Below are positions 39,382 through 62,918 of a stretch of 64,000 nt of DNA, in pieces. The notes below the pieces were generated by a model. It was not told the DNA's origin and ran no database searches. It was given only the letters and a program-made list of their open reading frames with translations. The translations under genes were made by a program, and so were the position numbers. The first letter of the stretch is position 1. Each line of letters starts with the position of its first letter. The stretch is from an uncultured Acidobacteriota bacterium. GTDB taxonomy: Bacteria; Acidobacteriota; Thermoanaerobaculia; UBA5066; Gp7-AA6. The stretch spans positions 131,199 through 195,198 of the forward strand of contig CAVXTP010000009.1 of NCBI GenBank assembly GCA_963764715.1, written 5' to 3'.

Positions 39382-39390
39382 CGGGAAGGG

Positions 39391-40990
39391 CTAGGCGCGG
39401 CTGCGCAGGTCCCGGGCGACTTCGCGGCTGGCGTTGAAGCCCGGCGCGCCCGAGACGCCGCCGCCCGGGTGCGTTCCGGCGCCGCAGAGGTACAGGCCGC
39501 GGACGGGCGTGCGGTACTGCGCCCAGTCGAGGAGCGGCCGCATCGTGAAGAGCTGGTCGATGGCGGCGTCGCCGTGGAAGACGTGGCCGCCCGTGAGGCC
39601 GAACGTCTGCTCGAGGTCCACGGGGGTCAGGACCTGCCGCGAGGCGACGAGGCTCTTCAGGTTCGGCGCGTACGCGGCGACGGCGTCGACGACGGCGTCG
39701 CCGAGGGCGTCCCGCTTCGCTTTCCAGTCGCCGGACTTCAGCTTGTAGGGCGCGAACTGGGCCACGATCGACATGACGTGCTTGCCGGCCGGGGCGAGCG
39801 ACGGGTCCGTCAGCGTGGGGATGGTGACGTCGCAGTACGGATGGGGCGAGAAGTCGCCGTACTTGGCGGCGTCGTACGCGCGCTCGAGATAGTCGATCTC
39901 CGGTCCGATGTGGATGCGTCCGGCGAGGACGTTCGGAGCCGCCCGCGGCCGCGGCGGAGGGAAACTCCGGCAGGCCCGAAAGCGCCAGGTTGACCTTGGC
40001 GATCGCGCCTTTCGACCGGTAGTTCTGCATCTTCCAGATGAAGTCCGGGTCGAGCTCGACCGGATCGACCAGAGTCGAGCAGCGTGTGCTTGGGATCGGC
40101 GTTCGAGACGACGGCGCGGGCCGGCACTTCCTCGCCGGTCGAGAGGACGACGCCGGTCGCCCGGCCGTCCTTCGTCGCGACGCGGGCCACGGTCGCTCCG
40201 GTGCGGACTTCGGCGCCGAAGCCGCGGGCGGCGGCGGCGAGCGCCTGGGTGAGCGCGCCCATGCCGCCCGCGCACGAAGTCCGCGGGGCCGGCGGCGTTC
40301 GAGTCGCTCGCGGCCTGGAGGACGACGCCGAGGGCCGTGCCGGCCGACCACGGGCCCGCGAACGCCCCGTAGATGCCCCGGGCGGCGACGACCGCGCGCA
40401 GCAGCTCCGTCTCGAAGAACTCGGAGACGAGGTCGGCGACCGCCATCGGGCCCCACCGCAGGAGCCGGAACGCGTCGCGGCGCGGCAGCGCCCGGAACTT
40501 GCGGCCGACGCCGAGGAGCTCCCACATTTCCCCCATCGACGGATCGTCGATCGAAGGCGGCGTCATCGTCAGGAACGGCGCCGAGCACCTTGCCGATCCG
40601 GCCGAGGCTCTCGTGGAAGGCGAGGTAGCCCTTCGCGTCGTGGGGCGAGATCTTCTCGATCGAGCGGGCGGCGGCCTGCGGATCGGAGGCCAGAGCGATG
40701 GCCCGTCCGTCGAGCGCCGGCGCGAAGACCCGGGTCTCCGTCTGGATGAACGAGAGGCCGTGGCGCGCGAGATCGAGGTCGCGGGCGATCGACGGCAGGA
40801 ACGGCCCCGCGGCGTGGAGGAGCGTCGAGGCGCGGAACCCGGGAGCGAACTCCTCGGTGACCGCGACCCCGCCGACGATCTCGCGCCGCTCGAGGACGGC
40901 GACCTTGAGGCCTGCCTTCGCGAGGTACGCGGCGGCGGTCAGGCCGTTGGGCCCGCCGCCGATGACGACGATGTCCTTCGTTTCCGCCAT
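39391..40990 (-). CDS. FAD-dependent oxidoreductase (phytoene dehydrogenase-like/PYROXD2 family); ~4 frameshifts
   Basis: GGGPNGL..AYLAKAG and YLCGAGTHPGGGVSG. Indels near 40582, 40268, 40075 and 39935. Confidence 0.8.
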
Positions 40991-45100: not shown

Positions 45101-45919
45101 TCAGACGCGCCGGGCGGCGCGCCGGGGAGCGATCGGCACGACCTCGGGCGCCTTCGACGCCTCCACCGCGGCCCGCCGGACCGAGCCGATCGTGGGCTCG
45201 AGGAGGGCGAGCAGGTGCTCGAGCTCGGCCGCGAGCGTGACGGCGCCGCGTCCCTCGGCTTCGTCCCGGCTCTCGGCGAGGCGCCGGCAGAACATGCGCA
45301 GGTCGTTCCACCGGCCGAGCGCCTCCTGCAGCGCCTTCTCCCGCTCGATCGAGCTCGTGAAACGCCGCAGGCCGAGGGCCGCGAGGTCCTCGGCGAGATA
45401 GCGCGCCTTCTTCACGGCGATCCGGTACCGGTGAAGCTCGTCGTCGTCCTTGCCCTCGAGCGAGTGCGCGAGCGTCGCCTCGGCGTGGACGCGGGCGCGC
45501 TCGAGCCGCTCGACCGCGTCGCCGTTCTTGCGACGGGCCAGCCTGTCCATGTCCTTGAGGAGCGACCGCACCCGCTTGCCGTCGGCGGCCCGGACGATCC
45601 GGCGGACGCCGCGCTCGGAGAGCTTCTCCCAGCGGGCGGCCAGCGCCGTCGCGGCGTCGGGCGAGAGATAGCCGAGCTGGCCGATGCGCGCGAGCAGCTG
45701 CCGGTCGACCTGGATCTGGCGGTCGGCCGAAAGCGACTGCACGAGCCCGCGCGCCTCGCGCGAAACGCTTTTCGCGCCGAGCGCGTCGGCGGTCGCGCTG
45801 ACCCGGCGCAGAGCGACGCGCAGGTCGTGGAGGCCTTCGGGCTCCGCGCGGCGCGCGGCCTTGCGCGCCCGGTCGACCGAGCGCACCCGCTGCTTCCAGA
45901 GCTCGCCGGGATCGCGCAC
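45101..45919 (-). CDS. CHAD-domain (polyphosphate-binding) protein
   Basis: Motifs LHDLRVALRR, LHRYRIAVKKARY, LQEALGRWND. Confidence 0.88.
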   Translation of the reverse strand: MRDPGELWKQRVRSVDRARKAARRAEPEGLHDLRVALRRVSATADALGAKSVSREARGLVQSLSADRQIQVDRQLLARIGQLGYLSPDAATALAARWEKLSERGVRRIVRAADGKRVRSLLKDMDRLARRKNGDAVERLERARVHAEATLAHSLEGKDDDELHRYRIAVKKARYLAEDLAALGLRRFTSSIEREKALQEALGRWNDLRMFCRRLAESRDEAEGRGAVTLAAELEHLLALLEPTIGSVRRAAVEASKAPEVVPIAPRRAARRV

Positions 45920-45955: not shown

Positions 45956-46010
45956 CTTCACGCGCCCTTCACACGGTCTTCACCGGGTTCCTCCGGCCGA
46001 GGGCGACAAT
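45956..46010 (+). promoter_or_regulatory. Pho-box-like 11-bp direct repeats upstream of ppx
   Basis: CTTCACG (45956), CTTCACA (45967), CTTCACC (45978); -10 GACAAT at 46005. Confidence 0.75.
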
Positions 46011-46019
46011 GCGCCGGCC

Positions 46020-47615
46020 ATGCGCACGCTCGGCGCGATCGACATCGGAACCAACAGCATCAAGCTCCTCGTCGCGAACGTCGAGGAGGACGGCTCGCTC
46101 GAGGTGCTCCTGCGCGAGAAGGCCATGGTGCGGCTCGGCAGCGAAACGCTGCGGACGGGCCGGCTGTCCCCGGAGGCCATCGAGGCGGGGGCCTCGACGG
46201 TCGAGCACTTCGTCAAGCTCGCCGCGGGCTCCGGCGCCGAGGTCGTCCGGGCCGTCGCCACCTGCGCCGTGCGCGAGGCCGTCAACTCCGACGACTTCGT
46301 CCAGGCGGTCAAGAAGCGGACGGGCGTCAAGGTCGAGGTCATCTCGGGCGAGGAGGAGGCCCGGCTCATCAACCTCGCGCTGCGGAGCGAGTTCCCGGCG
46401 CGGCAGGACCCGCTCTTCCTGATCGACATCGGCGGCGGCTCGACCGAGCTCGTCATCTCCGACGGGTCGCGCGTGCTCCTGACCGAGAGCCTGCCGCTCG
46501 GCGTGGTGCGCCTGGCCGACCGGCACGCCCGCAACGACCCGCCCTCCGAGAAGGACCAGCGGGCCATGAAGAAGGAGATCCGCGCGGCCGCCAAGCGCGC
46601 GGCCGACGCCGTCCGCAAGAAGGGCTTCAAGACCTGCGTCGGCTCCTCGGGCACGATCCAGTCCCTCTCGCTCGTCCACGAGGCCGCGATCCTCGGTCGG
46701 GAGCCCAGCCCGACGGGGCACCGCACCCTGACGCGCGAGGGCCTCCGGAAGGTCAACAAGCTCCTCCGCCGCACCACCGAGAAGGAAAAGCTGCGGGTCC
46801 CGGGCCTCGACCCCCGCCGGCGCGACATCGCGGTGCCGGGAGGGCTGATGCTCGCGTGGCTCCTCAAGCGCACGGGGGCCGACGCGATCGTCGTGGGGGA
46901 GCGGGGCCTGCGCGAGGGGCTCCTCCTCGACCACGTCGCCCGGCACGGCGAGACCCGCATCGCGGCCAACCGCGACATGCGGGCCCGCAGCGTCGACCGG
47001 CTGCTCCGGCGCGGGAACGCCGAGGTGCTCCACGCGGCCCACGTCGCCCGCCTGGCGCTGGAGCTCTTCGACCAGACGCATTCGATCCATCAGCTCACCG
47101 CGACCGAGCGCGAGTGGCTCCAGTACGGCGCGCTCCTCCACGACATCGGGTGCTACATCGGCTACGCCAAGCACCAGAGGCACTCGTATTACCTGATCAC
47201 GCACGGCGACCTGACCGGCTTCTCGGCCGACGAGATCGAGGTGCTCGCGAGCCTCGCCCGCTACCACAAGGGCGGTGGGCCCAAGATGGCGCACGAGAAC
47301 TGGCGGCGGCTCAATCCGTACCTCCAGGCCGTGGTCGAGAAGCTCGCCGCGATCCTGAGGATCGCCGACGGACTCGACCGCAGCCACCGGCAGATCGTGA
47401 CGGGCGTGTCGTGCCGCGTGCGGGCCCGCAAGATCGAGATCGAGGCCTCCGCCCGCATGGACTGCGAGCCCGAGCTCGACGCCGCGCGCAAGAAGGCGAA
47501 CCTGTTCGAAAAGGTCTACGACCGAAACGTGGCGCTGCGCGCCGTGCCGGCCGGGCGCGAGGACATCCTCCAGAAGGACCTCGAGATCCTGTCCGCCGAG
47601 GCGCTCTGGAACTGA
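46020..47615 (+). CDS. ppx: Exopolyphosphatase Ppx/GppA with HD domain
   Basis: Motifs AIDIGTNS, ISGEEEA, DIGGGSTE, GLREG, LHDIG. Confidence 0.93.
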   Translation: MRTLGAIDIGTNSIKLLVANVEEDGSLEVLLREKAMVRLGSETLRTGRLSPEAIEAGASTVEHFVKLAAGSGAEVVRAVATCAVREAVNSDDFVQAVKKRTGVKVEVISGEEEARLINLALRSEFPARQDPLFLIDIGGGSTELVISDGSRVLLTESLPLGVVRLADRHARNDPPSEKDQRAMKKEIRAAAKRAADAVRKKGFKTCVGSSGTIQSLSLVHEAAILGREPSPTGHRTLTREGLRKVNKLLRRTTEKEKLRVPGLDPRRRDIAVPGGLMLAWLLKRTGADAIVVGERGLREGLLLDHVARHGETRIAANRDMRARSVDRLLRRGNAEVLHAAHVARLALELFDQTHSIHQLTATEREWLQYGALLHDIGCYIGYAKHQRHSYYLITHGDLTGFSADEIEVLASLARYHKGGGPKMAHENWRRLNPYLQAVVEKLAAILRIADGLDRSHRQIVTGVSCRVRARKIEIEASARMDCEPELDAARKKANLFEKVYDRNVALRAVPAGREDILQKDLEILSAEALWN

Positions 47616-47637
47616 GGGAAGGGAACCGGGGGAACGC

Positions 47638-48303
47638 GTGAAAGAGCATTTTTCGGAGCAGCTCGAGGGGCTGCGGCGCCAGCTGATCCTGATGGGCGGC
47701 GAGGTCGAGCGCCAGATCCACGGCTCGATCGAGGCCCTGACCGAGATGGACGCCGAGAAGGCCCGGGCGGTCATCGCCAACGACGAGGAGATCGACCGCA
47801 TGGAGGTGCAGATCGAGGAGGCGGCGATTTCGCTGTTCGCCCTGCAGCAGCCGGTCGCCGTCGACCTCCGGTTCCTGATCGGGTGCCTCAAGATCAACAG
47901 CGACCTCGAGCGGATCGGGGACCATGCCGTCAACATCGCCGAGGGCGCCGAGCGGCTGGCGGGGCAGAAGCCCTTCAAGCCGTTCATCGACATCCCTTAC
48001 ATGGCGGAAGTCGCGATGTCGATGCTGAAGTCCTCGCTCGACGCCTTCGTCAACCGCGACGCGGACCTCGCGCGCCGGGTGATCAAGAAGGACGACATCC
48101 TCGACGAGAAGAACGTCTCGATCATCCGGGAGCTCCTGACGTACATCGCGGAGTACCCGGCGCTGACGACCTACTGCATCGAGCTCATCTCGATCTCCAA
48201 GAACCTGGAGCGGGTCGGGGATCTCGCGACCAACATCTGCGAGGACACGATCTTCATCGCCGAGGCGCGCTGGGTGAAGCACCACGCGACCGAGCTGCCC
48301 TGA
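47638..48303 (+). CDS. phoU: Phosphate signalling protein PhoU
   Basis: Motifs QQPVAVDLR, DLERIGDHAVNI, LERVGDLATNI. Confidence 0.96.
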   Translation: MKEHFSEQLEGLRRQLILMGGEVERQIHGSIEALTEMDAEKARAVIANDEEIDRMEVQIEEAAISLFALQQPVAVDLRFLIGCLKINSDLERIGDHAVNIAEGAERLAGQKPFKPFIDIPYMAEVAMSMLKSSLDAFVNRDADLARRVIKKDDILDEKNVSIIRELLTYIAEYPALTTYCIELISISKNLERVGDLATNICEDTIFIAEARWVKHHATELP

Positions 48304-48361: not shown

Positions 48362-49657
48362 ATGAGCCCTTCCCCGTTCCTCTGGGGCGTCGCGACCTCG
48401 GCGTACCAGGTCGAGGGCGCGCCCGACAACGACTGGACGGAGTGGGAAAGCCTCGACCGCCTCAAGGTCCGCGGCGCGCGCTGCGGCCGCGCGTCCGGGC
48501 ACGGTGAGCGGTGGCGGTCGGACTTCGGGCTGCTGCCGACGCTCGCCGCCAACGCCTATCGCTACTCGCTCGAGCGCAGTCGCCTCGAGCCCGAGCCCGG
48601 GCGCTTCTGCGAGGAGGCCCTGGCGGCCGAGCGGGAACGCGTCCGGGTCCTCGGGCGGCTCGGCATCGAGCCCTGCGTCACGCTCAGCCACTACACGCAT
48701 CCGCGCTGGTTCTGGGCGGACGGCGGCTGGGAAGACCCGCGCGCCATCGCGCGGTTCCGGCGGTTCGCGGAGGTGGCCGCCGGGAGCCTCGGCCCGTCCG
48801 TCCGGCTCTGGGTTACCCTCAACGAGCCGGTCGTTCTGCTGCTCGGCGGATACCTGGGAGGCCAGATCCCGCCGGGCCGGCGCGGTTTCCCCGCGGCCGC
48901 CCGGGCCTTCGAGCACATGCTCCGCGCCCACGTCGAAGCCGCCGCGGCGATCCGCGAGCGGATCCCCGACGCCCGGGTCGGCGTCGCGCACAACATGATG
49001 GAGTTCGCTCCGGACCGGCCCGATCGCTTCCTCGACCGCCGACTCGCCCGGGCGGCCGAGCGGCTCTACAACCTCGCGCTGCTCGAAGCGATCGCGACCG
49101 GCGATCTCGACTGGTCGTTTCCCGGCGAGGGGCGCATCCGGGTCCGCATTTCCGGGCTGCCCGCCGCCAACGACTACGTCGGCGTCAACTACTATAGCCG
49201 GCTGCACATCCGCTTTCGCGGCCGGCCCGGGGCCGTCGGAGAGTATTACTATCGCGACCCCGCGGGCCGCGGCCTCACCGACACGGGCTGGGAAGTCCAC
49301 CCGCACGGCTTCGACGTCGTGCTGCGCCAGGCCGCGATCCCGGGAAAGCCGGTGATCGTGACGGAGAACGGGATCGCGACCACCGACGACCGGCGCCGCG
49401 GCGACTTCCTGCGGGAGCATGCGGCCGTGCTCGCCCACCGCCGCGACGCGGGAACGCCCATCGAGGGTTACTTCTACTGGTCGCTGATCGACAACTTCGA
49501 GTGGCTCGAGGGCTTCCGCCCGAGGTTCGGGCTCTTCGAGGTCGACTACTCCACGTTCGCCCGCCGCCGGCGTCCCTCCGCCGACGTCTTCGCCGCGCTG
49601 GGACGGTGGTTCACCGCGGGAGGCGGTGCCGGATCGGCCGCCTCTTCTCGAAGGTGA
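48362..49657 (+). CDS. Glycoside hydrolase family 1 (beta-glucosidase)
   Basis: Motifs WGVATSAYQVEG, TLNEP, VTENG, WSLIDNFEW. Confidence 0.93.
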   Translation: MSPSPFLWGVATSAYQVEGAPDNDWTEWESLDRLKVRGARCGRASGHGERWRSDFGLLPTLAANAYRYSLERSRLEPEPGRFCEEALAAERERVRVLGRLGIEPCVTLSHYTHPRWFWADGGWEDPRAIARFRRFAEVAAGSLGPSVRLWVTLNEPVVLLLGGYLGGQIPPGRRGFPAAARAFEHMLRAHVEAAAAIRERIPDARVGVAHNMMEFAPDRPDRFLDRRLARAAERLYNLALLEAIATGDLDWSFPGEGRIRVRISGLPAANDYVGVNYYSRLHIRFRGRPGAVGEYYYRDPAGRGLTDTGWEVHPHGFDVVLRQAAIPGKPVIVTENGIATTDDRRRGDFLREHAAVLAHRRDAGTPIEGYFYWSLIDNFEWLEGFRPRFGLFEVDYSTFARRRRPSADVFAALGRWFTAGGGAGSAASSRR

Positions 49658-50433
49658 CGAACTCGGTCACGCCCGCGGCCCGGGCGAGCGGGAGCGTCTT
49701 CTCGTAGCCCCAGCCGACTTCCGCCGGCGCGTGCGCGTCCGAGGAGAACGTCACGGGAATGCCGGCCTCGACGATCGCCGAGAGCAGGCGCGGCTCGGGG
49801 TACGCCTCGCCGACCGGCTTGCGCAGCCCCGCCGAGGAGATCTCCACCGCGAGGCCGCTCCGGCGCGCCGCGGCGATGGCCGCGCCCTCGGCCTCGGCGA
49901 GCGGGAACGGCGGCCGGTGCCCGTGCTTCTTGGGAAGGTCGAAGTGCGTCAGCACGTCGAAGAGGCCGGTCCCGGCGGCCTTCGACAGCAGCCGGTAGTA
50001 GCGCTCGTAGAGGGCTTCGATCCCTTCCCGCGCGAAGCGCGCGGGCGAGGTGGCCGGGTCGTCGATCCAGCCGCCGTCGACCCAGTGGACCGAGCCGAGG
50101 ACGACGTCCCAGTCGGCGCGATCGAGCCATCGGGCGAGCTCTTCCTCGAAGTCCTCGGCGTAGTCGGCCTCGAGGCCGAGGCGCACGTCGATCGTGCCGC
50201 GGAACTCGGACCGAAGATCCTCCACCTCCCGGACGTAACCGTCGAACTGGGCCTCGGCCATCGCGAGCTTCGGGTCGCGGTCGGCCTCGGGCAGGAAGTA
50301 GAGCGGGATGTGGTCGGTGAAGGCGATCTCGGAGAGCCCCGCTCGATCGCCCGGAGGACGAAGTCCCGCGACGGCCCCGCCGGCGTGGCCGCAGCGGAAG
50401 GTGTGCACGTGGAGGTCGGGCGAGTCCCTGCAC
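49611..50433 (-). CDS. PHP-family histidinol-phosphatase (HisJ/HisK type); indels in the 5' part
   Basis: Motifs DLHVHT, FTDH, LGLEADY, LGSVH, THFDLPK, FSSDAH. Confidence 0.82.
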
Positions 50434-50456
50434 GGTCGGATTATCGCGCCGCCGAT

Positions 50457-50489
50457 CTTCACACCGTCTTCAACCCGGCCTCCTAGAGT
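50457..50489 (+). promoter_or_regulatory. Pho-box-like repeats plus -10 element
   Basis: CTTCACA (50457), CTTCAAC (50468), TAGAGT (50484); the ATG follows 6 nt later. Confidence 0.65.
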
Positions 50490-50495
50490 CGGCCC

Positions 50496-50840
50496 ATGAC
50501 GGTCAAGAGCGAGGACATCGAGCTCGTGGCCGAAGGCTCGGTCCCGGTCTCCGGATTCTCCCGCGAGCTTCGCGAGACCGAGGACGTCGAGCGGTACCGC
50601 TTCTCGTGGTCGACGCGCGGCGAGCCGTCGATGCCGGTGCACGTCGTCTTCTCGGCTTCCCGGCGCGCCGCCGAGGTGAAGACCGGCGACATGAAGGCTC
50701 TCCGATTTTCCGACGTGGGCTCGGCCGAGGAGGCCCGCGACCGGTGGATCGCGTGGTGGAAGCGCGCCGGCAGCCGGCCCGCGTTCGTCGGACCGCGGCG
50801 GACCGGCCGCCACCCGGTCGTCCGCCTCGCCGGCGTCTAG
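50496..50840 (+). CDS. Hypothetical protein (114 aa)
   Basis: GC3-biased ORF with its own promoter; no family recognised. Confidence 0.7.
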   Translation: MTVKSEDIELVAEGSVPVSGFSRELRETEDVERYRFSWSTRGEPSMPVHVVFSASRRAAEVKTGDMKALRFSDVGSAEEARDRWIAWWKRAGSRPAFVGPRRTGRHPVVRLAGV

Positions 50841-50850
50841 GCCGGCCGGG

Positions 50851-50927
50851 CTTCGTCCCGTCTTTACCCGCCGTTCGGCGGTTCTTTTCCCCGTCCTCCC
50901 GGGGCCCTCGCGCCCGGCGCCCAGACT
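50851..50927 (+). promoter_or_regulatory. Six phased degenerate Pho-box-like half-sites upstream of the PHP-GT operon
   Basis: CTTCGTC, CTTTACC, GTTCGGC, CTTTTCC, CCTCCCG, CCTCGCG at 11-nt spacing from 50851; CAGACT at 50922. Confidence 0.5.
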
Positions 50928-50939
50928 CGGGCCGTTCGC

Positions 50940-51650
50940 ATGCTGCTCTGTGACTTCCACATCCACACGACCTACTCCGACGGCGTCCTGCCGCTGACGA
51001 AGGTCGTCGACCTGTTCGGCCGGTCGGGGCACGACGTCATCGCGATCACCGACCACATCGTCAATCGCGACAGCGGCCTCGGAAAGATCGCGCACCGCAT
51101 CCGCCACAGCCTCGATTCCGAGAGCTGGAAGCGGTACGCCGACGAGATCGCCCGGGAGGCGGAGCGGGCCTGGCACACATATGGCATGGTGGTCCTGCCG
51201 GGAGCCGAGATGACACGCAACACCATCAACCGGCACACGTCGGTCCATGCGCTCGCACTCGGCCTCGACGAGTTCCTGTCGGCCGACGGCGATCCGCTGG
51301 ACATGCTGCGCGAGGCGCAGGCGCGCGGGGCCGTGACGGTCGCCTGCCACCCCCACGAGATGAGCGAGTGGTTCGCCAACACCTGGTACCTGTGGAACCG
51401 GCGCCGGCAGGTGGGCGATCTCGTCGATCTCTGGGAGGTGGGCTGCCGCTGGGAGCTCTACCCGGTGATCTCGAGGGAAAGCCTGCCGCATCTGGCCAAC
51501 AGCGACTTTCACCGGCCCGAGCACCTCTTCGCCTGGAAGACGCTGCTCAAGGCGGACAAGAACCGCGCCTCGGTGCTCGCGGCCCTGCGCCGCGGCACCG
51601 GCATCGGCGTTCTGCGCCTGACGCCGGACGAAGCGGCGGCGACGGCGTGA
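50940..51650 (+). CDS. PHP-domain phosphoesterase
   Basis: Motifs CDFHIHTTYSDG, ITDH, GAE, CHPH, NSDFH. Confidence 0.88.
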   Translation: MLLCDFHIHTTYSDGVLPLTKVVDLFGRSGHDVIAITDHIVNRDSGLGKIAHRIRHSLDSESWKRYADEIAREAERAWHTYGMVVLPGAEMTRNTINRHTSVHALALGLDEFLSADGDPLDMLREAQARGAVTVACHPHEMSEWFANTWYLWNRRRQVGDLVDLWEVGCRWELYPVISRESLPHLANSDFHRPEHLFAWKTLLKADKNRASVLAALRRGTGIGVLRLTPDEAAATA

Positions 51651-52795
51651 ACGTTCCCCTGGTCGTGGGGCTCGCCGGGCTCGCGGGCCTCGCCCTCGGC
51701 ACGCTCGCCTACGGGGCCGCGGCGATCACGCTCCTGCGGCTCCGGCGGACCTATCGGGGCGACCCGATTCCGGGCTTCGCGCCGCCCGTCACGATCCTGA
51801 AGCCCCTCGCCGGGCTCGACGAGGAGCTCGAGGAGAACCTGGAGACCTTCTACGCGCTCGACTACGACGAGTACGAGATCGTTTTTTCCTTCGCGCGCGC
51901 CGACGACCCCGCCTGTGCCTTGGCGCGGCGCGTGGCGGACCGCCACCCGGCCATCCGCTCGACCTTCGTCGTCGACGGCCGGGAGCCGGGCGGCAACTCC
52001 AAGGTCAATCGCCTCGCGGCGGGTATGCGCCGCGCGCGCCACCGGATGATCCTATTCTCCGACGGCAACGTCCGCGTGCGGCCGGATTTCCTGCGGAGGG
52101 CCGTCTCGTGGTTTCTCGATCTCCGGGTCGGCCTCGTCTCGCACCTCTTCCGCGGGCACGGCGCGTCGAGCTTCGGGTCCCGGCTCGAGTCCCTTTATCT
52201 CAACGGCTGCCTGATGCCCGGGACGGCCTTCGTGTGGGCCGTCCTCCGCCGCCCGTGCGTCGTGGGCAAGTCGATCCTGGTGTCGCGGGAGGCCCTGGAC
52301 GCGATCGGGGGCATCGGAGCGCTCCAGGACTATCTCGCCGAGGACTACGTTCTCGGCCGCCAGGTGCGCCGCGCCGGATACCGCGTCGTCCTCTCGACCG
52401 ACATCCTCGACACGCTCGAGGTGAACAAGCCGATGGCCACGGCGTTCCGGCGCCACCGGCGCTGGGCCATGATGCGCAAGCGGCTGGCCCGCTTCCTCTA
52501 CTCGGGCGAGCTGCTGGCGAGCGCCCTGCCCTGGTTCCTCGCGGCGATGGCGGCCCCCTCCGCGGCCATCCGGGGCGCGGCCGGCGCGCTTCTCGCGGCC
52601 CGCTGGACGATGGAGATCCTGCTCTCCCGGCCGTCGGGGCAGCCGATCCCCTGGCGCGAGGCCGTCCTCCTTCCGATCCGGGACCTGGGCGCGGCGGCGG
52701 TCTTCTGGGCGGGGGCGTTCGGCCGGTCCGTCGCCTGGCGCGGGCGGCCGGTCCGCATCGGGGAGGATACGAAGATCGTCAAGCGCGCCGCCTAG
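51647..52795 (+). CDS. Ceramide glucosyltransferase-like (HpnI/GT21-type) glycosyltransferase
   Basis: GTGA overlap; motifs VTILKPLAG, NSKVNRL, SDGNV, YLAED, RRHRRW; N- and C-terminal TM helices. Confidence 0.85.
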   Translation: MNVPLVVGLAGLAGLALGTLAYGAAAITLLRLRRTYRGDPIPGFAPPVTILKPLAGLDEELEENLETFYALDYDEYEIVFSFARADDPACALARRVADRHPAIRSTFVVDGREPGGNSKVNRLAAGMRRARHRMILFSDGNVRVRPDFLRRAVSWFLDLRVGLVSHLFRGHGASSFGSRLESLYLNGCLMPGTAFVWAVLRRPCVVGKSILVSREALDAIGGIGALQDYLAEDYVLGRQVRRAGYRVVLSTDILDTLEVNKPMATAFRRHRRWAMMRKRLARFLYSGELLASALPWFLAAMAAPSAAIRGAAGALLAARWTMEILLSRPSGQPIPWREAVLLPIRDLGAAAVFWAGAFGRSVAWRGRPVRIGEDTKIVKRAA

Positions 52796-52806: not shown

Positions 52807-54927
52807 TCAGAGGGTCGGGACGGCCTTCAGGCCCCGGCGCGCGAGGCGATCGAGCAGCAACCCCTGGGTGTCCACGGGGGCCTCGCCGGTCGGCGGATGG
52901 CGGCGGACGTACGTCCCGTCGCTCTGGAGGTCGCGGGCGCGGCAGTTGTCCGACCGGATGGGCTCGAGAATCTCGTGGCGGATCTTTTCGCGGGCCTTCT
53001 CGTCCTGGATCGGCGCCATGAGCTCGACCCGGCGGTAGAAGTTGCGCGGCATCCAGTCGGCGCTCGAGATGAAGATCTCCTCCTCCTCGCCGACGCCGAA
53101 GGAGAAGACGCGCGAGTGCTCGAGGAACCGCCCGACGACGCTCGAGACCCGGATTCCGTCGGAGACGCCCGGAACGCCGGGCCGCAGGCAGCAGATGCCC
53201 CGGACCGACAGGTCGATCGGGACCCCCGCCTGCGACGCCCGGTAGAGCGCCCGGATCACGCTCGCGTCGACGAGGGAGTTGAGCTTGGCGACGATCGCGG
53301 CGGGCTGGCCCGCGCGGGCCTTCTCGGCCTCGCGGTCGATCAGGGCGAGGACGCGGTCGTGGAGCGCGAAGGGTGCGACCGAGAGGCGCTTGTAGCGCGT
53401 CTTCTTCGAGAAGCCGGTCAGGAAGTTGAAGAGCTCGGACGCGTCGTGCCCGAAGTCGGCGCGCGCCGTGAAGAGGCCGACGTCGGTGTAGACGCGCGCG
53501 GTCAGCCGGTTGTAGTTGCCGGTGCCGACGTGGACGTAGCGGCGCATCGCCGCACCCTCGCGCCGGACGACGAGCGCGATCTTCGCGTGGGTCTTGAGGC
53601 CCTCGACGCCGTAGGCGACGTGCACGCCGGCCCGCTCGAGCGACCGCGCCCACTGGATGTTGTTCTCCTCGTCGAAGCGGGCCTTCAGCTCGACGAGAAC
53701 GGCCACCTGTTTGCCGTTCTCGGCCGCCCGGGCGAGCGCCGCGACGACGGGGGAGTCCGCACCGACGCGGTACAGCGTCATCTTGATCGCGAGGACGTCG
53801 GGATCGTCGGCCGCCGCGTCGAGGAACCGCAGCACGGGATCGAAGGCATCGTACGGGTGATGCAGGAGGATGTCGCCCTTGCGGATCGTGTCGAAGACGT
53901 TGGCCGGCCGGTCGAAGATCGTCCTCGCCGCCGGGAGGAACGGCGCGTCCTTGAGGGCCGGAAGGTCCAGCTTCATGACGGACAGCAGGTCCGCCGCGCC
54001 GAGGGGACCGGCGACCTCGTAGACGTCGCCCGGGTCGAGCTCGAGCTGCGTGCGGAGCAGCTCGCGGACGTGCTCCGAGCAGCGGTCCTCGACTTCGAGG
54101 CGGATCGCCGCGCCGAAGCGGCGGCGGCGCAGGTTGTCGGTCATGCTCCGGAGGAGGTCGCCGGCCTCGTCCTCCCGGATCTCGATGTCGGCGTCGCGCG
54201 TCACACGGAAGGCCGAGGCGCCCAGGATCTCCATGCCGGGGAAGAGGCGGTCGAGGTTGGCCTCGATGAGCTTTTCGAGCAGGACGAACTCGAGCGTCTT
54301 GCCCGACGCGCCGGGCACCGGCACGAACCGTGACAGCGATGCGGGGACCTTGATCCGCGCGAAGGCGGGCGTCTTCTCCTTCTTGTCCTTGAGCTCGACG
54401 GCGAGCGACAGGGAGAGGTTGGAGACGAACGGAAACGGGTGCGCCGGATCGAACGCGAGCGGCGTCAGGACCGGAAACACCACGCTTTCGAAGTAGCCCG
54501 AGAGCTCCTTGCGGCGCTCGGGCTCGATCTCCTCCCAGGACAGGATGCGGACGCCGGCCTCGGCGAGACGCGGCCGCAGCTCGTCGCGGAGCAGGCGCAT
54601 CGCATCGCCGGCGTCGCGCTCGACGATCTCGCGAATCGCCTGGAGCTGCTCGGTCGCGGAGAGACCGTCGGCGCTGCGCTCGGCGACGGAGGCCTCGAGC
54701 TGCTCGTGGAGGCCCGAGACGCGGATCATGAAGAACTCGTCGAGGTTCGAGTGGAAGATGGCGAGGAATTTCACCCGCTCGAAGAGGGGCCAGGCCGGAT
54801 CGAGCGCTTCCTCGAGCACGCGGCGGTTGAACGCCAGCCAGGAAATCTCGCGGTTGAAGTAGAGCGAATGGTCTTCCAGCCGGTCGTCCGGCGTCTGACC
54901 CCCACCGATGTAATGGACTTCGCTCAT
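52807..54927 (-). CDS. ppk1: Polyphosphate kinase 1
   Basis: Motifs NREISWLAFNRRV, NLDEFFMIRV, HPFP, LHHPY, ELKARFDE, GRFLEHSR, SADWMPRN. Confidence 0.97.
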   Translation of the reverse strand: MSEVHYIGGGQTPDDRLEDHSLYFNREISWLAFNRRVLEEALDPAWPLFERVKFLAIFHSNLDEFFMIRVSGLHEQLEASVAERSADGLSATEQLQAIREIVERDAGDAMRLLRDELRPRLAEAGVRILSWEEIEPERRKELSGYFESVVFPVLTPLAFDPAHPFPFVSNLSLSLAVELKDKKEKTPAFARIKVPASLSRFVPVPGASGKTLEFVLLEKLIEANLDRLFPGMEILGASAFRVTRDADIEIREDEAGDLLRSMTDNLRRRRFGAAIRLEVEDRCSEHVRELLRTQLELDPGDVYEVAGPLGAADLLSVMKLDLPALKDAPFLPAARTIFDRPANVFDTIRKGDILLHHPYDAFDPVLRFLDAAADDPDVLAIKMTLYRVGADSPVVAALARAAENGKQVAVLVELKARFDEENNIQWARSLERAGVHVAYGVEGLKTHAKIALVVRREGAAMRRYVHVGTGNYNRLTARVYTDVGLFTARADFGHDASELFNFLTGFSKKTRYKRLSVAPFALHDRVLALIDREAEKARAGQPAAIVAKLNSLVDASVIRALYRASQAGVPIDLSVRGICCLRPGVPGVSDGIRVSSVVGRFLEHSRVFSFGVGEEEEIFISSADWMPRNFYRRVELMAPIQDEKAREKIRHEILEPIRSDNCRARDLQSDGTYVRRHPPTGEAPVDTQGLLLDRLARRGLKAVPTL

Positions 54928-55157
54928 CGAGGTCGAATCGAGGGATGGAGGGTACCACCCCGATCCGTCACGGGTGTGAAGACAACAGATCGGACCTTCT
55001 GGCAAACGTTGTCCAGATATAACGGCTTCCGGATCTAAGTCCTATAGTTAAGTAAATAAATGACTTATCTGAGAAATATCGCTGTCGACTCCGAAAAACC
55101 TGCCTCAGATATGTCAGGATATATCTCTGGACATTTACTGATCGATTGGAGGCCCGA

Positions 55158-56084
55158 GTGGACGTTCAAACGACGAGCTCTTCCTTTGAGCCGAGCCTGA
55201 CGATCGGCGCCGTCGCGAAGGCGACCGGCTTCTCGCCGGACACGCTCCGCGTCTGGCAGAAGCGCTACGGATTTCCGGTGCCGCAGCGCAAGCCCTCCGG
55301 CCACCGCCTCTACAGCACGGCCGACGTGAAGCGCCTGCGACGGATCTCGGAGGCCCTCGCCCGCGGCCACCGGCCCGGCCAGGTCGTTCCGCTGCCGGAG
55401 CCCCGCCTCCAGTCGCTCCTGACCGAGGCCGGGGCCTCGACGGGCGCCGGCCCTCGGTCGCTCGCGCCGATCGCGAGCCTGATGGCGTTGGTTCGCCGGC
55501 ACGACGCCGCGGGCCTGACCTCCGCGCTCCTCTCGGACGCGGCGACGCTCGGCCCGGTCGAGTTCCTGCGCCTGCGGGCCGTTCCGATGGTTCAGGAGGT
55601 CGGCGAGGCCTGGTCACGCGGAGAGGTCGGGATCCACCACGAGCACTTCTTCTCGGAACGCTTGAGCGACGTGCTGCGCTCGGTGCGCATGCCCTACGAG
55701 CGGGCCGCCGCGGGGCCGCGCATCACGCTGGCGACGCTGTCCGGCGAGACGCACGGCCTGGGTCTCCAGATGGCCGCCCTCGTCGCGGCTGTCGGCGGGC
55801 TCGAGCCCCACGTGCTCGGCACCGATACGCCGGTCGCCGAGATCGCGGCGGCCGCCCGGTCCGGCCGCGTCGCGGCCGTGGGCGTCAGCATCTCGGCGTC
55901 GACGGCGGGCCCGGCCTCCCGCGATCAGCTCGCGGCGCTGCGACGGGCGGTCCCGGCGGGGACGCCCATCCTCGTGGGCGGGCAGGGCGCGCGGCGCAGC
56001 CATCCGCCGGGAGGTTGCGTCATCGTCGAAGACCTCCAGGGCCTCTTCGACTGGTCGCGGCGGCTTTCGGCGCGGAGCGCCTGA
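55158..56084 (+). CDS. CarH/LitR-type MerR regulator with a cobalamin-binding domain
   Basis: MerR HTH TLRVWQKRYG..SGHRLY; W-x9-EH motif (AWSRGEVGIHHEH); ETHGLG; SD GGAGG. Confidence 0.88.
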   Translation: MDVQTTSSSFEPSLTIGAVAKATGFSPDTLRVWQKRYGFPVPQRKPSGHRLYSTADVKRLRRISEALARGHRPGQVVPLPEPRLQSLLTEAGASTGAGPRSLAPIASLMALVRRHDAAGLTSALLSDAATLGPVEFLRLRAVPMVQEVGEAWSRGEVGIHHEHFFSERLSDVLRSVRMPYERAAAGPRITLATLSGETHGLGLQMAALVAAVGGLEPHVLGTDTPVAEIAAAARSGRVAAVGVSISASTAGPASRDQLAALRRAVPAGTPILVGGQGARRSHPPGGCVIVEDLQGLFDWSRRLSARSA

Positions 56085-56234: not shown

Positions 56235-56290
56235 CTTCGCGCGAAATTTACATCGGATGCCCGACGTCTTCACGGGGCCCGGGCGATTCT
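56235..56290 (+). promoter_or_regulatory. Pho-box-like repeats upstream of the lipoprotein gene
   Basis: CTTCGCG (56235), ATTTACA (56246), CTTCACG (56268) in 11-nt phase; GATTCT at 56285. Confidence 0.5.
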
Positions 56291-56385
56291 CCGCGTGCCG
56301 CTTCAGGCGCTTCGAACAGGCCCGGGCCCGACATCCCGGGAGTCCCGGAAGCGTAGGATCCGCGGAAAGCCGCGAAGGAGATTCG

Positions 56386-57123
56386 ATGAAGAGACCGACT
56401 CTCGCGCTCATCCTCGTCCCGGGCGTCCTCGCCTGCGCCTCCCTGTCGCCGGAGGCCGCGCAGGTCAAGGTCTACCAGGCGGAGCTCGCGGAGCGCGACG
56501 CGATCGCTCCGGCCCTTCCCGGCGGCTGCAAGTTGCTCGGCACTTCGGGACCGATCCAGCAGCAGCAGGAAGACCGTGAGATCAGCGACCCCTACCGCAA
56601 AGAGCGCAATCGGACGGCGAGCCTCGGCGGCAACGTGCTCTACGTCCAGTCGTACCGGATCGTCAATCTGATGAAGCTCGACTGCCCGGTCGGGGACACC
56701 TCTCCCGGCTGCATGGACCGCTCGCAGAGCTGGTACCGCGTCACGTTCGGGTCGTACGCGTGCGACGCGCCGGCGCTCCAGGTCCTCGCCGAGGCGCCGC
56801 TGCCATCAACGCCGAGCATCTTCAAATTCGAGCTCGTCAAGAAGACTCCGAAGCCGACTCCCGAGACCACTCCCGCGGCGGCGGTGGTTGCCGCAGCGCC
56901 GGCGGCTCCCGCGCCGACGCCCGCGCCCGCGGCGCCGGCTCCGCAGGCGGCCGGGCTGAAGGTGCAGGTGCTGGCGTTGATGCAGGAGGGCGTCGGCACG
57001 GACGTGATCAAGCTGTACGTCCGCTCGCATCCGGTCGCCGCGCCGCTGACGGCCGACGAGATCATCGACTGGAAGCGATCCGGGATCGCCGACGTGGTCA
57101 TCGAGGCGACCTTCGCGCGTTGA
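56386..57123 (+). CDS. Cys-containing lipoprotein of unknown function
   Basis: SD AAGGAG, lipobox VLAC, four further Cys, an Ala/Pro linker and a small helical C-terminal domain. Confidence 0.75.
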   Translation: MKRPTLALILVPGVLACASLSPEAAQVKVYQAELAERDAIAPALPGGCKLLGTSGPIQQQQEDREISDPYRKERNRTASLGGNVLYVQSYRIVNLMKLDCPVGDTSPGCMDRSQSWYRVTFGSYACDAPALQVLAEAPLPSTPSIFKFELVKKTPKPTPETTPAAAVVAAAPAAPAPTPAPAAPAPQAAGLKVQVLALMQEGVGTDVIKLYVRSHPVAAPLTADEIIDWKRSGIADVVIEATFAR

Positions 57124-57148: not shown

Positions 57149-57204
57149 CTTCAACTCGAATTTACAAGACCTTCGTCGCCCGTTGACCCCCCGCCCTCAT
57201 AACT
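57149..57204 (+). promoter_or_regulatory. Pho-box-like repeats upstream of the porin gene
   Basis: CTTCAAC (57149), ATTTACA (57160), CTTCGTC (57171), GTTGACC (57182). Confidence 0.65.
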
Positions 57205-57233
57205 CCCGGACCAATAGAGGAGGAGCTGCACAC

Positions 57234-58346
57234 ATGAAACGACTTTCGGGATTCCTGACCGCGTGCGCGATCGGCGCGATGCTTTCGAGCGGGGCGGCGC
57301 GCGCCCAGGTCACGGTCGCAGCCGGCTACACACCTCCCGACGACACCCCCAAGGTCAACGTCGGAGGCACGATCTTCGCGGACTACACGTACGTGCAGGA
57401 GCCGACGGTGACCGGATCGGACGGCAGCCAGGTGCACGCCAACGCGTTCAACCTCACGCGGGCGTACATCAACATCACCGGCCAGATCAACCATCTCATC
57501 GCATTCCGCATCACGCCCGACGTCGTGCGCGTCGGCCAGGTTTCCGGCGCGAACGTTCCGGGCCTCAGCGGGACCCTGACGTACCGTCTCAAGTACGCTT
57601 ACGGACAGCTGAACTTCAGCGACTTCACGACCAACGGCTCGTGGCTCCGGCTCGGACTTCAGCAGACGCCCTGGATCGACTTCGAAGAGGGCATCTACCG
57701 CTACCGGTTCGCCGGCACGGTGCTCGCGGACCGGGAGGGCGCGCTCACGTCGTCCGACCTCGGCGCCTCCGTCCACTGGAACATTCCCGGGAACTTCGGC
57801 GACATCCACGGCGGCGTCTACAACGGCAACGGGTATACGGCCCTCCAGGACAACGACTCGCAGATGTCCTACCAGGTGCGCGGAACGGTTCGCCCGCTTC
57901 CCATGGTGCCGATCATCAAGGGGCTGCGGCTGTCAGGCTTCTACGACGACGACCATTACGCGATCGACGCGAAGAAGCAGCGCTACCTCGCCGCGGCCAC
58001 GTTCGAGCATCCGTACGTCAACTTCGGCTTCCAGTACGACGTCTTCAAGGATCAGACCAGTGCCGGGGCGGCGGTCGTCGAAGCGCATGCCTACTCCGCC
58101 TGGGTCACGCCGCGCACGTGCTTCGGCCTGGAAGCGCTTCTCCGGTGGGATCGGATCACGCCCGACACGACGAAGGGCGCGAACCGGCAGCGGCTGATCG
58201 CGGGTCCGGCGTACTGGTTCCCGGTCACGAAGAGCGGCGTCGCCGCCGCGGTGCTGCTGAGGTTCGAGCAGCTGCGCTACATGGGCGCGCCCAACTCCAA
58301 GCCCACGGAGGAGAGCTACGGGCTTTTCACCCTCTTCAACTTCTAA
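57234..58346 (+). CDS. Outer-membrane beta-barrel, probable phosphate-selective porin
   Basis: Signal peptide, FNLTRAYIN, RLKYAY, C-terminal Phe; lies directly upstream of pstS. Confidence 0.75.
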   Translation: MKRLSGFLTACAIGAMLSSGAARAQVTVAAGYTPPDDTPKVNVGGTIFADYTYVQEPTVTGSDGSQVHANAFNLTRAYINITGQINHLIAFRITPDVVRVGQVSGANVPGLSGTLTYRLKYAYGQLNFSDFTTNGSWLRLGLQQTPWIDFEEGIYRYRFAGTVLADREGALTSSDLGASVHWNIPGNFGDIHGGVYNGNGYTALQDNDSQMSYQVRGTVRPLPMVPIIKGLRLSGFYDDDHYAIDAKKQRYLAAATFEHPYVNFGFQYDVFKDQTSAGAAVVEAHAYSAWVTPRTCFGLEALLRWDRITPDTTKGANRQRLIAGPAYWFPVTKSGVAAAVLLRFEQLRYMGAPNSKPTEESYGLFTLFNF

Positions 58347-58389
58347 TTAACAGAAGCTTCATGCTCCCTTAACGTATGAACTTCATCTT
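58346..58389 (+). promoter_or_regulatory. Pho-box-like repeats upstream of pstS
   Basis: ATTAACA (58346), CTTCATG (58357), CTTAACG (58368); CATCTT at 58384. Confidence 0.75.
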
Positions 58390-58413
58390 TGCGAACGAAA
58401 CGAGGAGATGCCG

Positions 58414-59442
58414 ATGAGAGCGATTCGATTCCTGCTGGCCGCAGCCGCCGGAGCATGGCTGGCGCTTCCGGCCTCGACCGTGCAGGCCCAGACGACCCAG
58501 ATCAACGGGGCCGGGGCGACTTTCCCCTACCCGATCTATTCGAAGTGGTTTGACGAGTACCACAAACTGCACCCCGAGGTCGAGATCAACTACCAGTCGA
58601 TCGGTTCGGGCGGCGGGATCCGTCAGCTCACGAACCAGACGGTCTTCTTCGGCGCCTCCGACGGCCCGATGACGCCGGACCAGATGCAGGCGGCTCCGGG
58701 TAAGGTCCTGCATCTTCCGACGGTGCTCGGCGGCGTCGTTCCGGTCTACAACCTGCCCGGTGATCCGGACCTGAAATTCACCGGCCAGGCCATCGCCGAC
58801 ATCATCCTGGGCAAGATCACGAAGTGGAACGATCCCGCGATCGCGTCCATCAACCCGGGCGTTTCGCTGCCGGGCACGGACATCGCCGTCGCGCACCGCT
58901 CGGACGGCTCGGGGACGACTTACATCTGGGTCGACTACCTCTCCAAGGTCTCGCCGGAGTTCAAGAAGAAGGTCGGCGTCTCGACGTCCGTCAACTGGCC
59001 GGTCGGCGTCGGCGGCAAGGGCAACGAGGGCGTCGCCGGGCTCGTCAAGCAGACGCCGGGCGCCTTCGGGTACGTCGAGCTGATCTACGCCATCCAGAAC
59101 AAGATCTCCTACGGCTCCGTGCGCAACATGGACGGTGAATTCGTGAAGTCGAGCCTCGCCTCCGTGACGGCCGCGGCGGCCGCGGCGAGCAAGCTGATGC
59201 CCGCGGACTTCCGCGTGTCGATCACCAACGCTCCGGGCAAGGACGTCTACCCGATCTCGTCCTTCACGTGGATGCTGTTCTACGAGAGTCCCAAGGACAA
59301 GCAGCGGGCGCGCATCATGGTCGACTTCATGAAGTGGGCCCTGACCGACGGGCAGAAGTTCGCGGCCAACCTGGGGTACGCACCGCTGCCTTCCGACGTC
59401 GTCGCGCTGGAAATGGAAGCCCTCAAGCGGATCAAGCTGTAG
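58414..59442 (+). CDS. pstS: Phosphate ABC transporter substrate-binding protein
   Basis: Motifs GAGATFPYP, GSGGG, FGASD, HRSDGSGTT, GKGNEGV. Confidence 0.97.
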   Translation: MRAIRFLLAAAAGAWLALPASTVQAQTTQINGAGATFPYPIYSKWFDEYHKLHPEVEINYQSIGSGGGIRQLTNQTVFFGASDGPMTPDQMQAAPGKVLHLPTVLGGVVPVYNLPGDPDLKFTGQAIADIILGKITKWNDPAIASINPGVSLPGTDIAVAHRSDGSGTTYIWVDYLSKVSPEFKKKVGVSTSVNWPVGVGGKGNEGVAGLVKQTPGAFGYVELIYAIQNKISYGSVRNMDGEFVKSSLASVTAAAAAASKLMPADFRVSITNAPGKDVYPISSFTWMLFYESPKDKQRARIMVDFMKWALTDGQKFAANLGYAPLPSDVVALEMEALKRIKL

Positions 59443-59456
59443 GGTCCACGGGAACG

Positions 59457-60434
59457 ATGAAAACCCCGTCCTCGCGCGGGAGTGCCGACGACCGCGGATT
59501 CCGGCTGGGGACGGGGTTCTTTGCCCTGCTCGTGGTTCTCCTCGTCGTCGGCATCTTCTGGGAGCTCTACCGCACCTCGAACCTTTCGATCGCGAAGTTC
59601 GGCTTCCGATTCTGGACGGGCAAGGTGTGGGATCCGGTCGCCGGCGAGTTCGGGGCGCTGCCGTTCATCTGGGGCACGTTGTATTCGTCGATCCTGGCGA
59701 TGCTGATCTCGACGCCGGTGGCGATCGGCATCGCGATCTTTCTCTCGGAAATCTCGCCGAGGGCCCTGCGCACGCCGCTCGCGTTTCTGACGGAGCTTCT
59801 CGCGGCCATCCCTTCCATCGTCTACGGGCTCTGGGGCGTTTTCGTGCTGGTGCCGATCGTTCGGCATCTGCAGACCATCACACCCGCGTGGATGAGGAAG
59901 ATCCCGCTCTTCACCGGCCCGCCCCTGGGCGTCGGCATGGGCGCGGCGGCGCTGATTCTGGCCGTCATGGTCATCCCGTTCACTTCGTCGGTCGCGCGCG
60001 AGGTCCTCAAGGCCGTGCCGGCCACGCAGCGCGAGGCGGCCTACGCGCTCGGCGCGACGCGATGGGAGGCGATCCAGGCGGCGCTGCGGTTCGGACGCAC
60101 GGGAATCCTCGGAGCCGTCATTCTCGGGTTCGGCCGGGCCGTCGGGGAAACGATGGCCGTCACCATGGTCATCGGCAACAACCCCCAGGTGACGGCCTCC
60201 CTCTTCGCGCCCCAGTACACGATGGCGGCCGTCATTGCCAACGAGTTCACGGAGGCCGCGGACGACCTCTATCTCTCGGCTCTCATCGAGATCGGTCTCG
60301 TTCTCTTCGTCATCACGGTGGTCGTGAACGCCCTGTCCCGTCTGCTCATCTGGAGCGTGACGCGGGAAGTGAAGATCCGGATTCCGAAGGCCGCGATGCC
60401 CGCGTCGCCCGCCGAACCGAAGGCGGCGGCATGA
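59457..60434 (+). CDS. pstC: Phosphate ABC transporter permease
   Basis: Motifs [37 protein letters not shown]. Confidence 0.96.
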
Positions 60435-61279
60435 ATCGGACCCGCCGGCGCAAGGCACTCTCGTCCCTCGTCGTGCTTCTCTGCGCGGGGTCGGTCGTCG
60501 TCGCCCTCGTGCCGCTGTTCTTCGTGTTCGCCTACGTTCTCCAGAAAGGCTTTTCGTCGCTCAGCTGGGACTTCTTCACGAAGATGCCGAAACCCGTCGG
60601 CGAGACCGGGGGAGGGATGGCCAACGCGATGCTCGGCACGCTCTTCCTCATCGCGATCGCATCCGCCGTCGCGGTGCCCGTCGGAGTCATCGCCGGCGTT
60701 TACCTGTCCGAGTACGGCAAGAAGAGGTTCGCGTCCCTCGTCCGGTTCACGGCGGACGTCCTGAACGGCGTCCCGTCGATCGTCATCGGCATCTTCGCCT
60801 ACGGGCTGGCGGTCCTTCCCGTGAAGCACTTCTCGGCGCTCGCGGGCGGGCTCGCCCTCGGCTTCATGATGATTCCCATCATCACGCGAACGACCGAGGA
60901 GCTCCTGAATCTGGTGCCCGGCACTCTGCGCGAAGGCTCGCTCGCCCTCGGCGCGACGCGGGCGCGCGCCGCGTTCTCGGTGATGGTCCCGGCGGCGCTG
61001 CCCGGCATCATGACCGGGATCCTCGTGGCCCTGGCGCGGATCGCCGGCGAGACGGCGCCGCTGCTCTTCACGGCGTTCAACAACCGGTTCTTCTCCACGC
61101 GCCTCGATCAGCCGATCGCGTCGCTGCCCGTCCAGATCTACACCTACGCGGTCTCGCCGTACGACGACTGGCACCGCCAGGCCTGGGCCGGCGCGCTCGT
61201 CCTCGTCGCGTTCGTCTTCACCTTCTCCGTCCTGGCGCGGGTCGTCACCCGCAGGCTCGAGAGGATGCATCGCGCGTGA
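60431..61279 (+). CDS. pstA: Phosphate ABC transporter permease
   Basis: Motifs [23 protein letters not shown]. Confidence 0.96.
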
Positions 61280-62136: not shown

Positions 62137-62149
62137 GAGGAAGGAGCGA

Positions 62150-62905
<756 letters not shown>

Positions 62906-62918
62906 GCACCGCGGTCCG

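Follow-up and report, generated by a model that had tools for sequence, protein, structure and literature searches.

A 64,000-nucleotide stretch of DNA (the window) from an uncultured Acidobacteriota bacterium (GenBank assembly GCA_963764715.1, contig CAVXTP010000009.1, positions 131,199 to 195,198 of the forward strand) carries, within a phosphate cluster, genes for a GH1 beta-glycosidase, a TM0559-like PHP metallophosphoesterase and a GT21 glycosyltransferase, a conserved module kept together across several phyla. The trio very probably acts as a Pho-controlled glycolipid module, and we lean, with considerably less assurance, towards a full mechanism in which the PHP protein would free diacylglycerol (DAG) for glycolipid synthesis. 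New here are the occurrence in Acidobacteriota and the tests by which HpnI is excluded and DAG favored. The source genome (G000) is 4.36 Mb long and 97% complete, and the relatives compared with it were Acidobacteriota of the Thermoanaerobaculia. The features concerned are the following, in window positions.

45956 to 45988, plus strand: three-unit array before the ppx-phoU(-GH1) genes (context).
46020 to 48303, plus strand: ppx and phoU (context).
48362 to 49657, plus strand: GH1 beta-glycosidase of 431 amino acids (aa), BglA-like subgroup, conserved module member (PF00232).
49611 to 50432 (50432 approximate), minus strand: HisJ-family histidinol-phosphatase-like PHP protein (NF005596, 285 bits against a cutoff of 202).
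50457 to 50489, plus strand: 11-bp-phased Pho-box-like array before the 114-aa gene (rank 7 genome-wide).
50496 to 50840, plus strand: lineage-restricted protein of 114 aa (no Pfam or NCBIfam match).
50851 to 50894, plus strand: degenerate 11-bp-phased Pho-box-like array before the PHP-GT21 pair (weight matrix, conservation).
50940 to 51650, plus strand: TM0559-like PHP metallophosphoesterase of 236 aa (2ANU, E 1e-46).
51647 to 52795, plus strand: GT21 inverting membrane glycosyltransferase of 382 aa (PF13506, 139 bits).
52807 to 54927, minus strand: ppk1, without a tandem array (context).
57149 to 64000, plus strand: arrays at 57149 and 58346, putative porin, pstSCAB, phoB-like and phoR-like genes (context).

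The cluster runs in the order CHAD, ppx, phoU, GH1, hisJ-like gene, 114-aa gene, PHP, GT21 and ppk1, followed by a MerR/B12 regulator, an unknown, a putative porin, pstSCAB and phoB/phoR-like genes; PhoB TIGR02154 was the best match of the phoB-like gene, at 208 bits below its cutoff of 296. The original prediction, made from this DNA alone, had placed a 114-aa gene and a coupled PHP-GT21 pair between phoU and ppk1, with a GH1 directly behind phoU. The GH1 indeed starts 58 bp downstream of phoU, the PHP and GT21 genes share a GTGA overlap and are thereby translationally coupled, and ppk1 comes next on the minus strand, but the minus-strand hisJ-like gene between GH1 and the 114-aa gene had been overlooked. 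Because of this gene, GH1 is not cotranscribed with PHP-GT here.

Since kin are not independent, the locus counts given here and below are patterns rather than test statistics. The PHP protein was matched in 51 of 61 relatives, and 38 loci were examined: 20 from the genus and, from two other families of the order, every one of the 18 strong matches found beyond it. In this survey of PHP-GT21 neighborhoods with pho genes, which the original prediction had proposed, a GT21 gene was present in 38/38 loci, and GH1 and a pho gene in 36/38 each, with GH1 usually directly before PHP outside the genus. Among the best 80 of 557 GTDB loci (43 from Acidobacteriota, partly the same genomes as the relatives, and 37 from Nitrospirota and allies), GT21 lay directly downstream of PHP in 79 and GH1 was nearby in 67; 5 of the loci without it are on short contigs. 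Metagenome-assembled genomes of Thermodesulfovibrio are among the carriers of the module. The genes are also absent together: among 25 PHP-negative genomes, two fragmented assemblies were the only ones to retain a close piece of GH1 or GT21, and the remaining genomes held distant GH1/GT21 paralogs or nothing. The phylum draw gave a PHP match in 8 of 201 Acidobacteriota genomes (one of the eight, G122, is unpublished and was counted in that tally only), and the module is therefore patchy; in another phylum, 8 of 151 genomes matched. The linkage to pho genes on which the prediction leaned held in Acidobacteriota, with a pho gene within 8 kb of PHP in 37/43 loci, and was weaker elsewhere (14/37 loci, or 10/20 of the long ones).

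The structure closest to the PHP protein was TM0559 of Thermotoga maritima (PDB 2ANU; E 1e-46, Foldseek template-modeling score of 0.86), and the fold is a PHP barrel, not a calcineurin-like one. Nine residues (H7, H9, D14, H39, E90, H103, H137, D189, and H191) were invariant in 62 sequences, and we take them, from the family pattern, to be putative ligands of a trinuclear metal site. No transmembrane segment was predicted in the protein; a basic amphipathic helix lies at residues 46 to 53, and the segment after the His39 ligand was amphipathic and net positive in 32/32 GT-linked PHPs examined, in contrast to a net-negative segment in 3/3 PHPs fused to kinases. Regarding partners, among 120 longer PHP homologs listed, 109 were fusions to the monogalactosyldiacylglycerol (MGDG) synthase PF06925, and six of the seven fusions with a taxon name came from Verrucomicrobiota. 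Two other Acidobacteriota loci couple PHP to a GT2 (L288:445-3913 and L289:7520-9050), the former pair being followed by DUF47 and a PiT transporter. Six apparent PHP-GT21/GT2 fusions (P0121 to P0125 and P0127) were dropped as frameshift joins because the four examined have out-of-frame middles, and a plasmid search with the PHP query returned two weak matches only. Moreover, the PHP domain was observed in hybrid kinases of 641 to 656 aa with receiver, HisKA, and HATPase domains (L299:1489-3414, L300:1489-3444, and L301:1489-3459). These adjoin phoR/phoB-like genes, with Pho-box-like repeats upstream in L299 and L300; the three genomes also carry a PHP-GT21 pair, and the protein is possibly a phosphoester-sensing kinase.

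Pho-box-like arrays were scored with a weight matrix trained only on the upstream regions of ppx, porin, and pstS of relatives (61 sequences), from which the window and its two closest relatives had been left out. The ppx, pstS, and porin arrays rank 1 to 3 genome-wide, ranks that are partly circular, and the array of the 114-aa gene (50457) ranks 7th across G000; the latter was significant in 13/20 loci, the misses likely being due to misplaced start estimates. The array upstream of PHP is kept in Thermoanaerobaculia. In 31/39 loci it lies at a fixed distance and scores above at least 95 of 100 shuffled versions, and the mean score is 12.0 at period 11 versus 5.1 to 7.8 at periods 9, 10, 12, and 13. 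A period-11 array also precedes the PHP gene in 33/37 loci of Nitrospirota and allies (1.6 expected from shuffles), and a two-unit or longer array precedes the PHP-MGDG synthase fusions in 60 of the 72 loci, out of 80, that had usable upstream sequence (1.4 expected). No separate array belongs to GH1 (score of -7.0 in G000; significant in 5/36 loci), and ppk1 (3/22 loci) and phoU (0/27) likewise show none. Because of the 11-bp period and the genes that they precede, we infer that the arrays are PhoB binding sites. The claim that the same phased repeats stand before each unit was borne out for the 114-aa gene, whose array is strong, and in part for PHP, whose array is conserved among relatives but degenerate in the window, with 351 genome positions scoring equally high; the downstream part of this array (50851) also matches a terminator-like hairpin at 50868 to 50881.

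Two further array-bearing genes were observed in the window. The protein at 56235 to 57123 (about 250 to 288 aa, no Pfam match) precedes the putative porin; an 11-bp array of its own ranks 4th genome-wide, and the protein is likely another Pho-regulon unknown. The porin-like gene at 57234 to 58346, which bears an array and lies before pstS, is itself conserved in the order, has no Pfam or NCBIfam match, and is a candidate phosphate-selective porin.

The GT21 protein carries the PF13506 domain (139 bits) with D, DxD-like, D, and RxxRW motifs, presumably the scheme of the family. Its best NCBIfam match was HpnI TIGR03472, at 263 bits below the cutoff of 310. This match and the presence of shc in G000 would fit an HpnI acting on bacteriohopanetetrol in an incidental neighborhood, an explanation that is already largely refuted and that we regard as extremely improbable. 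hpnJ was not found in G000; shc was matched in just 35 of the 75 module genomes tested, a set made up of 36 relatives (from the 51 with a match) and 39 locus genomes, and in none of the other 40. Of the 13 module genomes in one family (f2; 95 to 99% complete), 11 gave no shc match. In addition, one module genome (G040) carries a separate over-cutoff HpnI (334 bits) beside hpnJ, hpnA, and shc, which groups with reference HpnI in the tree. In that tree (few references and a midpoint root, with three truncated rows and one nonmatching row left out), a 98/88 branch separated 47 PHP-coupled GT21s from HpnI and from PlcP-coupled references. Thus, the phylogeny against HpnI proposed earlier, once run, placed the PHP-coupled GT21s in a clade of their own, and the trio was seen to persist without shc rather than to cluster with hpn genes. 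Judged from sequence, the GT21 is not HpnI, and the hopanoid acceptor named in the original prediction is effectively excluded. The G040 hopanoid cluster (L326:4503-14724) is itself of note as a Thermoanaerobaculia locus in which hpnJ, hpnI, hpnA, and shc all exceed their cutoffs.

Alternatively, the main activity of the GT21 here could be ceramide glucosylation, yielding a glycosphingolipid during starvation as in Caulobacter, with the PHP protein stripping phosphosphingolipids and the GH1 acting as a glucosylceramidase. G000 has a gene similar to serine palmitoyltransferase (SPT; NF047600, 549 bits, cutoff 640) that adjoins a gene we take to be a bacterial ceramide synthase (bCerS; L146:1327-3790, C22), and a bCerS-like match was obtained in 63 of the 75 module genomes, among them every one of the 36 tested from the order; the bCerS label is putative, and no library matched the gene, which counts against this alternative. 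Ten module genomes of one lineage gave no bCerS-like match, and nine of these also no SPT-level match (completeness not given), yet their GT21s nest within the same PHP-coupled clade. Eight genomes (G064 to G071, completeness not given) had no shc, bCerS-like, or SPT-level match and yet kept the trio, and therefore DAG would be the acceptor common to all. The fusion partner of PHP elsewhere, MGDG synthase, likewise disfavors ceramide. In the accessible text of the respective papers, Pgt takes ceramide besides DAG but favors DAG (PMC3972451), and the ceramide-specific Sgt1 and Sgt2 of Caulobacter belong to GT4 (PMC6445935). Taken together, we consider a ceramide-centered module improbable and DAG the likely acceptor, with ceramide a possible one in G000; from the list of acceptors predicted earlier (ceramide, DAG, ether lipid, or hopanoid), DAG is favored over ceramide and the hopanoid drops out. 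As a separate observation, SPT-like plus bCerS-like matches in all 36 order genomes tested and in most Nitrospirota suggest sphingolipid synthesis in these groups.

The GH1 is the sole GH1 in G000, keeps the NEP acid/base and TENG nucleophile motifs, and has no predicted transmembrane segment. Its best PDB match was BglA of Pyrococcus horikoshii (1VFF) with 266 bits, the next reaching 215, and a Nitrospirota module GH1 is also closest to BglA. In comparisons of GH1 sequences, 20 module-linked ones split from 8 unlinked ones, and those of the module share a hydrophobic run after NEP, as does BglA, which fits a lipid aglycone. BglA reportedly prefers long-chain alkyl glucosides and, by the title of a citation, is said to be membrane bound. 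The GH1 would here be read from the ppx-phoU promoter and is therefore more likely coinduced than a switch-back enzyme; we prefer a predicted role in glycolipid turnover, and the reversal of glucosylation proposed originally may hold as one of two live readings, hydrolase or transglycosylase. For the second of these, the GH1 would be an SFR2-like transglycosylase that transfers a sugar between two monoglycosyl-DAG molecules to give a bilayer-forming diglycosyl lipid, which is doubtful but compatible with the best explanation. Plant SFR2 is described, in the part of the source available, as a GH1 with galactolipid:galactolipid galactosyltransferase activity (PMC4011751), module GH1s have the hydrophobic run, and a position behind the array-bearing ppx-phoU genes, coinduced with the GT, would be odd for a purely reversing enzyme. 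On the other hand, the closest structure (1VFF) is a hydrolase, and the MGDG synthase fusions show no conserved GH1 neighbor. A GT28 MGDG synthase match was not found in G000.

The position held by PHP is occupied on three alphaproteobacterial plasmids (Fuscovulum, Pannonibacter, and Gemmobacter) by a PlcP-like gene coupled to GT21 and annotated as UDP-2,3-diacylglucosamine diphosphatase. Against a PlcP-like plasmid query, the plasmid proteins scored 185 to 223 bits, while 80 genomes (70 with PHP and 10 without) gave no close relative (best 44 bits), and G000 gave none. The LpxH-like gene of G000 (L145) was rejected as a PlcP, having no match to this query at E 1e-5.

The main alternative for the PHP protein is that it acts on soluble by-products, either uridine diphosphate (UDP) from the glycosyltransferase or head groups already released, so that phosphate is regained and the reaction drawn forward, with DAG coming from elsewhere. 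We consider this unlikely, though less so than the ceramide or transglycosylase alternatives. In its favor, the proteins matched by family and fold are soluble phosphoesterases, nucleotide bisphosphate phosphatases among them; what the partners GT21, GT28, and GT2 have in common may be the UDP product just as well as the acceptor; service as the input domain of a hybrid kinase would suit a small ligand; and the protein has no predicted transmembrane segment. However, PHP occupies the slot of the PlcP-like gene, its amphipathic helix is basic in GT-linked PHPs and acidic in the kinase fusions, and in genomes without a close PlcP relative this alternative leaves the supply of DAG unexplained.

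Several other observations, besides the shc and ceramide genes of G000 and the weaker pho linkage outside Acidobacteriota, weigh against a Pho-controlled module that releases DAG. The weak family and fold matches of the PHP protein have activities on small soluble phosphoesters or nucleic acids and none on a lipid. The family also occurs without a GT neighbor (L286, L287, and L297) and fused to the hybrid histidine kinase (L299 to L301), and GT-free PHPs are likewise net positive after His39 (3/3), two of them similarly amphipathic. The ceramide-gene-poor lineage has a two-unit array in just 4/10 loci, and no conserved pho neighbors were found around the 80 metagenome loci of PHP-MGDG synthase fusions. 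Finally, the plasmid gene is presumed to be PlcP from its position, not from comparison with a characterized PlcP, and for genomes G061 to G099 no completeness value is given.

Considering both sides, we still favor a module that would be induced by the neighboring PhoB-like regulator and would replace membrane phospholipids with a phosphorus-free glycolipid. It is highly probable, from the arrays, that PhoB binds them under phosphate starvation. The PHP protein would then use its basic amphipathic helix to dock on the inner membrane and would free DAG, most likely by cleaving off the head group in the manner of a phospholipase C, like PlcP, or otherwise by dephosphorylation of phosphatidic acid; docking with DAG release by either route is, as a joint proposal, somewhat more plausible than not on sequence features. 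The GT21 would transfer a hexose from UDP-hexose in beta linkage to DAG, in G000 possibly also to ceramide, and the GH1 would act on the resulting beta-glycolipid, with trimming or recycling more likely than extension. The predicted Pho-controlled, non-PlcP glycolipid route has strong support from comparison, namely the conserved trio, the arrays in three lineages, the PHP-MGDG synthase fusions, and the lack of a close PlcP relative in the genomes searched; its 114-aa and hopanoid parts fall away. A broader and tentative proposal, which we hold rather less probable than the mechanism itself, is that the TM0559 family is an intracellular phospholipase C on a PHP barrel, a nonhomologous replacement of PlcP that was recruited to Pho control beside GT21, GT28, and GT2, across four or more phyla, and was also put to use as the input domain of a Pho-linked hybrid kinase.

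The two remaining genes between GH1 and PHP are local. The 114-aa protein had no Pfam or NCBIfam match (Atlas best 0.75), 66 homologs that are all at least 51% identical, and a predicted model with a pLDDT of 74 for which Foldseek gave no fold match. Its gene was present in 19/20 genus loci and in none of the 18 from the other two families, so that its inclusion in the conserved system, as originally proposed, does not hold; it is likely a Pho-regulated passenger. The hisJ-like gene, found in 20/20 genus loci and 4/18 loci of other families, is a local passenger outside the cross-phylum module, and its start region appears frameshifted relative to relatives.

Elsewhere in the cluster, a CHAD-domain gene (45101 to 45919) diverges from ppx and a CarH-like MerR/B12-binding regulator (55146 to 56084) diverges from ppk1, both conserved in the genus. 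An Rfam scan of the 40- to 64-kb part of the window gave 0 matches, and a sigma-70 scan gave 0 sites. Apparent frameshifts at about 36800, at 39221 to 40990, and at about 50430 (the hisJ-like start) are likely assembly indels, because many relatives split similarly; the genes at the first two places are presumably methylmalonyl-CoA mutase-like and phytoene-dehydrogenase-like.

The plcP gene is the usual marker in surveys of phospholipid-to-glycolipid remodeling, and lineages using PHP would be missed by it. If the proposed route is true, it would extend remodeling capacity to Thermoanaerobaculia, Nitrospirota, and Verrucomicrobiota lineages, assign a function to TM0559, an orphan family of structural genomics, and bring a lipid into the substrate range of the PHP superfamily. 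In the literature covered, which leaves out most subscription journals, no PHP-GT lipid module was found described. A starvation-induced PHP protein of Phaeobacter is tabulated without function in the accessible text (PMC10132767), and the available parts of the lipid papers on Desulfovibrio G20 (PMC5193443) and Desulfatibacillum (PMC11181052) gave no mention of PHP or PlcP and of PlcP or a phosphoesterase, respectively.

Among known systems, HpnI shares the GT21 fold and motifs, and the module GT21 differs from it in its below-cutoff score, separate clade, lack of hpnJ, and independence of shc. TM0559 is the closest structure to the PHP protein and, in an alignment with it, lacks the GKxA basic helix. 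As far as the accessible texts go, Pgt of Agrobacterium tumefaciens and Mesorhizobium loti is Pho-box controlled and makes beta-glycosyl-DAG (PMC3972451), and Caulobacter Sgt1/Sgt2 carry out PhoB-regulated lipid glycosylation under phosphate starvation, with no phosphoesterase partner described there, unlike in the module (PMC6445935). The PlcP-GT operons of Pseudomonas aeruginosa and Phaeobacter (PlcP plus Agt) are Pho-box-headed, coupled pairs of a phosphoesterase and a lipid glycosyltransferase in the part of the source available (PMC8528852). For the module GT21, Pgt serves as a model, likened by its description and not by its sequence. We assume that Pgt is itself a GT21. The features shared with PlcP-GT operons are thus the phosphoesterase-GT coupling and the Pho-box-like promoter arrays, and the differences are a PHP barrel in place of the calcineurin-like PlcP, a GT21 clade apart from PlcP-coupled GT21, and a conserved GH1 as third member; the module would act like a PlcP-GT operon but, because PlcP is missing, is not a member of that group.

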